DNA of 64,000 nucleotides from Gammaproteobacteria bacterium (GTDB taxonomy: Bacteria > Pseudomonadota > Gammaproteobacteria > Eutrophobiales > Eutrophobiaceae), in assembly GCA_965261775.1 (NCBI GenBank), contig OZ253477.1, forward strand, positions 355,311-419,310, read 5' to 3'. A program made the translations under genes and the position numbers. Below, one piece after another: positions 51,021 through 52,439 of the stretch; the first letter of the stretch is position 1, and the number at the start of each line of letters is the position of its first letter. The notes beneath the pieces were generated by a model. It was not told the origin of the DNA and did no database searches. It worked only from the letters and a program-made list of their open reading frames with translations.

Positions 51021-51164
51021 CCCTTATTTGACCAATATTTCTATAAAAAACCTGAATAGTTTCTGGCATAGTTTCTGGCATAGTTTCCTGCATTGTAATT
51101 TCCTCCTGAGTTGATTGGCATTTTTTACTTTAAATTTTTTAGCACACGTGCTTTAAGCAAACAC

Positions 51165-51569
51165 TCACTTGAAAACACCTGAGAATTCTGAAACCTTTCC
51201 ATCAACAGTCGAAATGCTGATTACTATTCTATAGGGTGGTAAAGTAAAATAGCTACTAGCCAAGAGATAGTATGCATGTAGAACAGATTTTTGTGCGTCT
51301 TTTCTAATTTTAAACCCGTCCCTCTTAAGAAATCTAATAGCATCCTTCTCCGGCATCCCAACGTAAATATATTTTTTTAAAATATCGTCTATGTTTATAC
51401 TGTCTGTGTTTATACTGATATTTCCTTCAAGCTTATCTGGCTTTAAAGATTTCTCCAAACTTAAAACATCAGAAACAATTTTACTATCTTTATCATTTTT
51501 CGTGCAACCTCCGATTAAAGCAAAAACCAAAAACATACAAAAAAACAAACTGATATATTTTTTTAGCAT
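51165..51569 (-). CDS. Small lipoprotein (134 aa) in an AT-rich operon upstream of the FrpC-like gene
   Basis: Signal peptide with lipobox (…LIGGC). It lies immediately 5' of the RTX gene on the same strand. Confidence 0.5.
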   Translation of the reverse strand: MLKKYISLFFCMFLVFALIGGCTKNDKDSKIVSDVLSLEKSLKPDKLEGNISINTDSINIDDILKKYIYVGMPEKDAIRFLKRDGFKIRKDAQKSVLHAYYLLASSYFTLPPYRIVISISTVDGKVSEFSGVFK

Positions 51570-51581
51570 TTTTAAGGCACC

Positions 51582-51911
51582 TCATTCACATAAGGATTGA
51601 TATGTAGCATTCAGAGCATTCTGGTGAACCGTTTGAACAGCCTGTTCACAACCAGGGGATTGGTTTACTCGGGACATTAATACAGGCTCACCGTTTTTCT
51701 TGGTGACCGATATCTCTCCGGTGTAATACATCAGTTTTCCTTTATTATCATACTTTGGAATTTCTTTATATTCATAAACAAAATCCCCTTCAACATATTT
51801 GTAATGGCTACTGTCAATATAGGCGATAGCCGGGGAGCCCTGAAAAAACACGATAAGGAAAAGTATTACAATTTTTTTAATCATCACGACCAACCTGAAA
51901 TAAAAAGTCAT
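51582..51911 (-). CDS. Small secreted protein (~100 aa)
   Basis: Signal peptide MIKKIVILFLIVFFQGSPAIA. AT-rich. Confidence 0.4.
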   Translation of the reverse strand: MTFYFRLVVMIKKIVILFLIVFFQGSPAIAYIDSSHYKYVEGDFVYEYKEIPKYDNKGKLMYYTGEISVTKKNGEPVLMSRVNQSPGCEQAVQTVHQNALNATYQSLCE

Positions 51912-51914
51912 TAA

Positions 51915-52280
51915 TCAAGTCAAAGATTCTGTGGTAGGGGCCTTAAACAGGGCAGGACAGATGGTAGCAGGGTTGGAATACCAGCCAGAGTATTCCTTCA
52001 GGTCTTTGTAAAATGCTTCTATCCGCTTGTCCTGGTTATCTCTACCATTCAAAGTACCGTTACCGTGAAGGTTTCTCCAGGTGCCCTCTATATGCTGAAA
52101 CAACCCGTAAGCCGTACTTGTTCCCGCCCTGGCCTTTGGATCGAAATCAGATTCAGCATTAGCTACCAGTATTGCTGTTTCAATTAAAGTATTCTTTAAG
52201 CCGAGTTCATTGCCTATATTGACAATATCATCAACTTGCTTCAATTGTTCACATGTCAATTCGTCTAACCTGGAAGCCAT
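51915..52280 (-). CDS. Small protein with a lytic-transglycosylase (SLT)-like motif
   Basis: …AESDFDPKARAGTSTAYGLFQ… resembles the E-S…GLMQ core of SLT domains. 121 aa, no signal peptide. Confidence 0.35.
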   Translation of the reverse strand: MASRLDELTCEQLKQVDDIVNIGNELGLKNTLIETAILVANAESDFDPKARAGTSTAYGLFQHIEGTWRNLHGNGTLNGRDNQDKRIEAFYKDLKEYSGWYSNPATICPALFKAPTTESLT

Positions 52281-52439
52281 AAGTTTTATTCTCCAACAAG
52301 CGTAAAATTAAAAGTCCAATTGTTTTTCAAAAATAATGTTCCAATAGGCTTGAAATTCGGATTCGTTCCCTTTCTTTTTGTCCTCCGAAAAATCCATCGT
52401 ACTTCACTTATAAATATATGTCTATAGTACATATTGAGC

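Follow-up and report, generated by a model that had tools for sequence, protein, structure and literature searches.

A lipoprotein gene paired with the N-terminal cargo domain of a self-clipping RTX protein: a candidate immunity protein that is an analogue, not a homologue, of FrpD

Why a lipoprotein gene should stand directly in front of a self-clipping RTX gene is the question raised by a 64,000-nucleotide stretch of a gammaproteobacterial genome of the Eutrophobiaceae (assembly GCA_965261775.1, contig OZ253477.1, positions 355,311 to 419,310), here called the window, in whose own coordinates positions are given. Three short minus-strand open reading frames (ORFs), g1, g2 and g3, precede an FrpC-like RTX gene that carries an SPM, and an earlier note made from the letters of the DNA had taken the three as a possible partner module of the FrpD type. 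The arrangement is like that of frpDC of Neisseria meningitidis, in which a lipoprotein gene is likewise found directly 5', on the same strand, of an RTX gene whose product is clipped by its SPM at an Asp-Pro bond. Recognition of FrpD as the FrpC partner dates from 2005; to our knowledge no biological role has been settled for the clip-and-link RTX proteins of the FrpC type. The answer that we favour on balance, if with limited assurance, is that g3 is the lipoprotein of a conserved head-to-tail pair with the RTX cargo, most likely its cognate immunity or inhibitor protein, and that g1 and g2 are passengers; the g3-RTX cargo pair is an analogue of FrpD/FrpC, not a homologue. The elements concerned are as follows, in the order in which they would be transcribed.

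51915 to 52280, minus strand: g1, a leaderless lytic-transglycosylase-like protein of 121 aa with its C-terminal end altered here (Pfam SLT, gp144 alignment, PHROG)
51582 to 51884, minus strand: g2, a protein of 100 aa with a cleavable Sec signal, two mature Cys and no family (sequence, library searches)
51165 to 51569, minus strand: g3, a lipoprotein of 134 aa of a rare unnamed family, the proposed partner of the RTX cargo (lipobox, homologue neighbourhoods)
51094 to 51164, minus strand: spacer between g3 and the RTX gene, with an AGGAGG ribosome-binding site (sequence)
51021 to 51093, minus strand: actual beginning of the RTX gene, MQETMPETMPETIQVFYRNIGQ, shifted by one base against the frame of the remainder (leader conservation, tblastn)
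50820 to 50962, minus strand: 18-bp tandem repeat of 7.9 copies, a (GSTDSS)n linker (repeat scan)
50388 to 50795, minus strand: RTX N-terminal cargo domain of an unnamed family (homologues in contigs L005, L011 and L013 and in Agrobacterium pAt)
49734 to 50267, minus strand: Asp-Pro site (50267-50262) and SPM (phmmer to 6SJW, E=4e-29)
44020 to 49733, minus strand: RTX repeat body and C-terminal secretion-signal region with several frameshifts (HemolysinCabind and HCBP_related domains)

The g3 product bears a type II signal peptide with the lipobox ..ALIGG/C (MLKKYISLFFCMFLVFALIGG ahead of the Cys), as the earlier note had recognized in calling the last gene a lipoprotein, and the lipobox is kept across the family. 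The mature part is of ~112 residues, with Thr at position +2. No Pfam, NCBIfam, PHROG or PDB sequence family and no phage relative was found for g3, and a word-indexed homologue search with g1, g2 and g3 returned only the three themselves and same-genome paralogues, which for g3 are two full-length proteins of 59% and 53% identity (P0009 and P0010). A g3 profile search of 1.84 billion representative proteins gave 16 matches at E<=0.001: 14 are small (lipo)proteins, one is paralogue P0010, and the last, P0017, was matched falsely by the profile and was rejected as a family member; the distant homologues are 25-40% identical to g3. A search of genome contigs with the alignment of g3 paralogues gave no locus and that with the remote-family alignment gave one (L003); two metagenome-contig scans and three viral-contig scans gave no locus.

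In four independent metagenomic lineages a g3 homologue lies 17-40 nt upstream of a gene with the leader ME.IQV.YRN.GQ, and in three of the four (L005, L011 and L013) the cargo domain of the window RTX protein is present as well. In L005 the lipoprotein P0018, 32-40% identical to g3, is encoded 18 nt ahead of a gene that begins MESIQIFYRNIGQ and is 51% identical to the window RTX N-terminal region over 189 residues. The order in L011 is an RTX C-terminal end, 526 nt, a lipoprotein gene (lipobox FSTGG/C), 16 nt and a cargo gene that opens MESIQVYYRNMGQ, the cargo domain of which runs into PLILDLDGDGIETI, an SPM-like start. L013 (1193-3075) consists of the end of an M10 metalloprotease gene, four tandem lipoprotein genes and, after 18 nt, a distant cargo homologue that has NCN where the others have NSN; the four lipoprotein paralogues are of 130 aa, 55-72% identical, with a G+C content of 0.38 versus 0.56-0.65 in the flanks. 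In the TARA marine contigs L007-L010 what comes after the lipoprotein gene is a remnant of the leader, which in L007-L009 is truncated and opens with MEKIEVRYRNVGQ. Because remote g3 homologues adjoin genes with the RTX leader and cargo, the position of a lipoprotein gene directly 5' of the SPM-RTX gene is supported as a recurrent pairing rather than a coincidence. Divergence of the two partners also rises in parallel across loci, the cargo and lipoprotein identities being 71% and 51% between L005 and L011, ~51% and 40% between the window and L005, and 25% and 25-34% between the window and L013.

Two details of these loci may be recorded here. The fourth lipoprotein of L013 has Asp at +2 after the lipid-modified Cys, and in L010 (654-794) the gene for lipoprotein P0019 has downstream of it a leader MEKIEVRYRNV that is joined to a P-loop (GPSGTGKT) and not to cargo. 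The cargo domain is found also on pAt of Agrobacterium tumefaciens (CP048471; L004 4281-7733), where a homologue opens a 955-aa hypothetical protein that has an SPM-like segment (PVVLDLNNDNG..) near its C-terminus and no RTX repeats; ABC and HlyD genes for type I secretion lie 3' of this gene, and the gene 5' of it encodes a 179-aa Sec-exported protein unrelated to g3, an arrangement that lends the pairing further support.

The partner proposed for g3 lies at the N-terminus of an RTX protein that has an SPM with its Asp-Pro site, RTX nonapeptide repeats and a C-terminal secretion region, in agreement with the earlier description of the downstream gene as an SPM-RTX gene. The SPM matches the FrpC SPM structure 6SJW by phmmer, the cleavage motif lies at 50273-50250, and PF26745 SPM is recorded on a segment of contig L001 that is 97.5% identical to the window SPM. 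The 5' end of the gene requires revision: the stop codon of g3 is 144 nt from the GTG at 51020 that opens the long RTX ORF, which accounts for the distance of 145 bp given previously, and the real start is the ATG at 51093, 71 nt past g3 and with AGGAGG 8 nt upstream, because homologues keep the leader ME.IQ(V/I).YRN.GQ. A 1-nt frame break near 51010-51025 separates this start from the rest of the gene (tblastn joins 51093-51007 with 51011-50352), and GTG 51020 is merely the first start codon past the break. The corrected 5' end includes a 12-bp tandem repeat (51056-51093, 2.7-3.2 copies) that encodes (MPET)n and, like the 18-bp repeat, is in frame. At another place in the genome MPETI stands ahead of lipoprotein paralogue P0010 as well, a hint that lipoprotein genes may be in tandem at that place. 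A terminator scan found no terminator between g3 and the RTX start, and a terminator follows the RTX stop; g3 and the RTX gene are presumably co-transcribed.

Alignment of the cargo domain with its homologues gives as invariants a His, a Tyr, N-[S/C]-N and APGS; the window cargo is 51% identical to the L005 and L011 genes and 25-29% identical to the L013 and Agrobacterium pAt proteins, and Pfam, NCBIfam, PHROG and PDB sequence searches returned no family for it. The His and N-[S/C]-N recall peptidases of the PPPDE/DeSI type (His...NCN), a motif-level lead that is not significant, since hhalign aligned the NCN motif with a probability of only 2%. The domain is provisionally taken as unrelated to FrpC residues 1-414.

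The pair is like frpDC in gene order and SPM clipping. FrpD binds FrpC residues 1-414 with a dissociation constant of ~0.2 nM, and is a protein of 271 residues (~247 mature) with its own fold of fourteen strands crossed by a long C-terminal helix (PMC5233953). The mature g3 protein, in contrast, is of ~112 residues, and its AlphaFold2 model made with the family sequences (pLDDT 83; a model from three sequences only, pLDDT 52, was left unused) consists of the signal helix, a linker helix and then two short helices packed on a four-stranded sheet. Neither FrpD (5EDF) nor the lipoprotein Smlt3025 (6PDK) was matched at E<=10 by phmmer with g3 or by hmmsearch with a 17-member profile against all PDB chains, which should include 5EDF, and in a Foldseek comparison of the g3 model with the PDB the first 50 matches do not include FrpD. 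Because there is no sequence match and the predicted fold differs from that of FrpD, g3 falls outside the FrpD family and was rejected as an FrpD homologue. Iron (Fur) regulation of frpDC is a further point of difference: near the window trio no site agrees with the 19-bp Fur box at more than 10-13 of 19 positions, the level of shuffled sequence, in an organism that the consensus may not suit. Of the FrpD-type partner proposed in the earlier note, what stands is thus the pairing of a lipoprotein with an SPM-RTX cargo, which recurs in L005, L011 and L013 and as remnants in L007-L010; what does not is the assignment of g3 to the FrpD type.

The best Foldseek PDB matches of the g3 model are YycI, BLIP and BamE (probability 0.85-0.91, E 0.13-0.3, TM 0.3-0.43). 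Of these, BLIP is a protein that inhibits an enzyme, and BamE (SmpA_OmlA) is a small outer-membrane lipoprotein; the likeness of g3 to them is non-significant. A functional parallel is given by Smlt3024/Smlt3025 of Stenotrophomonas maltophilia, in which the effector domain is shared with many RTX N-termini and acts when sent to the periplasm, and the lipoprotein encoded by the adjacent gene neutralizes it. Smlt3024 is a homologue of RTX N-terminal domains, and Smlt3025 protects against it as immunity protein; on grounds of structural resemblance the 2019 study proposed an immunity role for FrpD, with FrpC as a type I effector (PMC6759196).

That g3 is probably a binding partner of the cargo domain is suggested by the pairing; that it is an immunity or inhibitor protein is suggested by the character of its family. 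Immunity arrays of polymorphic toxins (type VI, contact-dependent inhibition (CDI) and Rhs systems) are made up of small, AT-rich, variable and exported proteins whose genes are toxin-adjacent, often tandem and found also as orphan copies. The g3-family genes are likewise small, AT-rich, variable, exported, cargo-adjacent, tandem and orphan: there are three copies in this genome, orphans in L003, L006 and L012 and the four-gene array of L013. They are unlike the type VI, CDI and Rhs arrays in that the variable domain is N-terminal, the lipoprotein gene is upstream and the carrier is a self-clipping type I RTX protein. Variability of g3 itself is seen in comparison with L001, a rearranged paralogous locus in which the g3 signal peptide is 91% identical and the mature protein 77%, with a ratio of nonsynonymous to synonymous substitution rates (dN/dS) of ~1.0; the mature surface is variable while the signal peptide and the core are conserved, and the neighbouring g2 is 98.7% identical. 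As the SPM of L001 and the window is near-identical (97.5%) yet the sequence N-terminal to it differs, cargo regions have been exchanged on a conserved carrier.

In the mechanism that we would propose, the RTX protein would leave the cell through a type I secretion system whose genes lie in another part of the genome, the SPM would fold under the action of extracellular calcium, and cutting of the Asp-Pro bond would release a cargo fragment of ~250 residues with a reactive C-terminal anhydride. The g3 lipoprotein in the cell envelope would bind the cargo domain and, as immunity protein or inhibitor, would protect the producer and its kin from an envelope-acting cargo; a second option for g3 is that of a surface anchor, as proposed for FrpD. 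More tentatively, as a possibility that we rate below even chances, the g3 family and the His...N-[S/C]-N cargo may be an undescribed effector-immunity system on a type-I-secreted clip-and-link RTX protein, in which the SPM anhydride would fix an envelope-acting and possibly papain-like enzyme domain covalently on competitors, and BLIP-like lipoproteins, often arrayed, would give immunity. If so, this would be a second and unrelated case for FrpC-type RTX proteins as antibacterial weapons and not host-directed toxins. Since a lipoprotein family unrelated to FrpD pairs repeatedly with other cargo on the same kind of carrier, the placing of a lipoprotein 5' of a clipped cargo seems to be a general arrangement rather than one peculiar to Neisseria. 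Two unannotated protein families are defined in this way, the RTX gene model is corrected to a start at 51093, g1 and g2 are placed outside the conserved unit, and small proteins now allow a direct test of the immunity hypothesis.

The three small genes share one reading frame, with a gap of 3-30 nt between g1 and g2 and of 12 nt between g2 and g3; g2 has an alternative ATG at 51911 that would give 109 aa, and the protein-database entry is the 100-aa form. As the earlier note had observed, they are AT-rich genes on one strand: the G+C content is 0.437 for g1, 0.373 for g2, 0.316 for g3 and 0.373 for the whole block versus a non-RTX background of 0.486, a level reached in just 2 of 252 background segments of 1.1 kb each. 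The E-S...GLFQ motif that it had noticed in g1 is also borne out by Pfam SLT (PF01464), at 22.2 bits versus a cutoff of 21.3 and over profile positions 15-57 of 117 only. g1 aligns to the catalytic ES..GxFQ region of phiKZ gp144 (ESAFD..GWFQ) and matches, at best at 1e-7, transglycosylase domains of PHROG that form part of tail and virion proteins, with weak tblastn matches. It thus shares the Glu-Ser and GxFQ region with phage virion and endolysin transglycosylases (phiKZ gp144, tape-measure and baseplate lysozyme domains), but differs from them as a free-standing protein of 121-133 aa at a chromosomal RTX locus with no phage neighbours. The g1 protein has no N-terminal hydrophobic segment or signal peptide (MASRLDELTCEQLK) and no recognizable secretion signal, and among 5.8 billion proteins its relatives are confined to the copies on L001 and L002, metagenome contigs of one sample, the latter from a sister strain 97.7% identical over window 62278-51750. 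These two agree on a 133-aa g1 ending EYVYVRHHDGIHYIVN, 12 aa longer than the window form and itself short for an SLT domain. The last ~70 nt of g1 (window 51890-51960) differ from L001 and L002, which share a sequence 30 nt longer, and the window 3' end appears to be a private replacement or deletion that removed the C-terminal EYVYVRHHDG; because of this private alteration the window g1 would be without the C-terminal part of the domain.

The g2 product has a cleavable Sec signal, ..SPAIA/YID, with an Ala-x-Ala site, and two Cys in its mature part. One paralogue (P0012) is found in the same genome, and no Pfam, NCBIfam, PHROG, phage, plasmid or PDB-sequence family was found. A match over 26 residues to the Cna_B collagen-adhesin repeat (E=5.5e-4) was set aside as a motif coincidence because Pfam gives no match. 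Counterparts of g1 and g2 are missing from the other lipoprotein-cargo loci, and for this reason the truncated lytic-transglycosylase-like g1 and the small periplasmic g2 are best regarded as lineage-specific passengers of the AT-rich cassette, outside the conserved pair; g1-g2 may be what is left of a wall hydrolase in decay, or else a further pair of the effector-immunity kind. The single three-gene module of the earlier note is not upheld, as these absences and the L001 trio, which follows another RTX end, both indicate.

Upstream of g1 the window holds the following further features.

52281 to 52469, minus strand: non-coding leader 5' of g1, 189 nt (94.7% identical to L001)
52470 to 52795, minus strand: 3' remnant of another RTX gene, its last HCBP-related block (translation; with an internal stop; ends DINTVKTMVPENQP)
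52889 to 53083, plus strand: IS3-family transposase C-terminal fragment, a remnant (tblastn to annotated IS3 transposases, E ~1e-3; motif GDCRDNVVVESFFGS)

Both the drop in G+C content and the IS3 remnant of the earlier note are therefore real, and the IS3 fragment is found also in sister-strain contig L002. The RTX 3' remnant, on which that note was silent, sits between the IS3 fragment and g1 and is 78% identical to L001, where the same RTX gene end stands before the g1-g2-g3 trio. The leader of g1 has no Rfam match and has one promoter-like site (52424-52396), such sites being no commoner than chance. Beyond the IS3 fragment are a porin-like gene and then asmA; no type I secretion genes are found within the 64-kb window, where the neighbours are housekeeping genes. 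In L001 (5763-9829) the corresponding region is an RTX patchwork of a 661-aa SPM-RTX gene, a 36-aa N-terminal fragment of a GH108 muramidase, an AT-rich non-coding stretch of ~1 kb, an SPM from which 100 nt are deleted and an RTX end fused to it, and then the trio.

Several observations weigh against the interpretation of g3 as immunity partner of the cargo. The RTX gene (44020-51093, minus strand) has at least eight frame breaks in this assembly, near 51015, at least six at 47200-47500 and at ~44560, and because of these the locus may be decaying; the breaks may mark a pseudogene or may be long-read assembly indel errors in repeats, the latter being possible because L002 also shows breaks, one of them within g1. 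Three of seven remote contexts are without a cargo gene (L003 after a urease operon, L006 after a toxin-antitoxin pair, L012 alone), the supporting contigs are mostly short (0.8-4.4 kb), the likeness of the g3 fold to the BLIP/BamE type is not significant (E>0.1), a g3 dN/dS near 1 is equally expected from relaxed constraint, and the L001 trio stands after the 3' end of a different RTX gene. In addition type I substrates bypass the periplasm, and we know of no route for the cargo into the envelope of a target cell. Much of this is what would be expected if the trio were non-functional or unrelated AT-rich hitch-hikers landed in a recombination-prone RTX region, and to the frame-shifted RTX gene, the dN/dS and the unrelated contexts of L003 and L006 may be added the privately altered 3' end of g1, the upstream RTX remnant beside the IS3 fragment and the RTX, SPM and GH108 patchwork of L001. 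This explanation nevertheless seems unlikely: all three ORFs are intact here, g3 keeps the conserved core of its family and has a confident fold prediction, adjacency of lipoprotein and cargo recurs in four other lineages, and the frame breaks that L002 also shows may be errors of long-read assembly. Equally improbable in our estimation is that g3 is an FrpD-like surface anchor, which would capture the clipped cargo, itself covalently linked to another surface, and so act in adhesion and not immunity. The gene order is that of frpD-frpC, upstream of an SPM-RTX gene (PMC5233953, PMC7078468), Thr at +2 of g3 is compatible with outer-membrane sorting, and a conserved pairing would fit any binding-partner role; but g3 has no FrpD homology in sequence, size or predicted fold, and no Fur box was found with a consensus that may not suit this organism. 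Envelope export, tandem arrays such as the diverged four-copy one, orphans, a variable mature surface on a conserved core and low G+C content would fit an immunity or inhibitor protein better than a single anchor.

The presence of g1 and g2 admits two other explanations, one of which, a lysis-cassette-like release module freeing the large toxin by an endolysin and a spanin-like pair, of the kind known from phage lysis or from type 10 secretion dependent on holin and hydrolase, we regard as highly improbable. The order of a leaderless hydrolase-like g1, an N-terminally hydrophobic g2 and a lipoprotein g3 is suggestive, as are the resemblance of g1 to phage virion and endolysin transglycosylase domains and the GH108 fragment that adjoins RTX genes in L001. 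However, the locus has no holin-like ORF; the g2 signal is cleavable (Ala-x-Ala) and its short periplasmic part is without i-spanin coiled-coil character; g3, with a predicted globular domain of 112 aa, is unlike the short Pro-rich o-spanins; g1 and g2 are missing from the other lipoprotein-cargo loci; and RTX proteins with a C-terminal signal use type I secretion. A phage-type lysis cassette was rejected for want of a holin and of phage relatives of g2 and g3 and because g3 is apparently globular, and homologues confined to prophage lysis cassettes, which the earlier note had named as the finding that would tell against a partner module, were not seen, g2 and g3 being without relatives in phage genomes, PHROG or viral contigs. 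It is also doubtful, if rather less so, that g1-g2 is a second effector-immunity pair stacked before g3-cargo, in which g1 would be a wall-cleaving effector or an orphan cargo module and g2 its periplasmic inhibitor. g1 is without a signal peptide, as a type I or contact-dependent cargo would be, g2 would be in the periplasm, where an inhibitor of a wall-degrading enzyme must act, the two are kept together in both copies (window and L001), and cargo swapping occurs, as the near-identical SPM with different N-terminal sequence indicates; on the other hand g1 has no recognizable secretion signal and is truncated here, no homologues of g1 or g2 are found outside this lineage, and g2 matches no known lysozyme or transglycosylase inhibitor.

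Elsewhere in the window a second RTX gene (2666-8005, minus strand) is intact and encodes 1779 aa without a cargo domain or SPM; it has long near-identical repeat units, and its C-terminal 30 residues are closely like those of the SPM-RTX protein. Further along, two tandem paralogous ORFs of 116 and 108 aa (9446-9796 and 10019-10345, minus strand) encode very hydrophobic proteins that are probably multi-pass membrane proteins.

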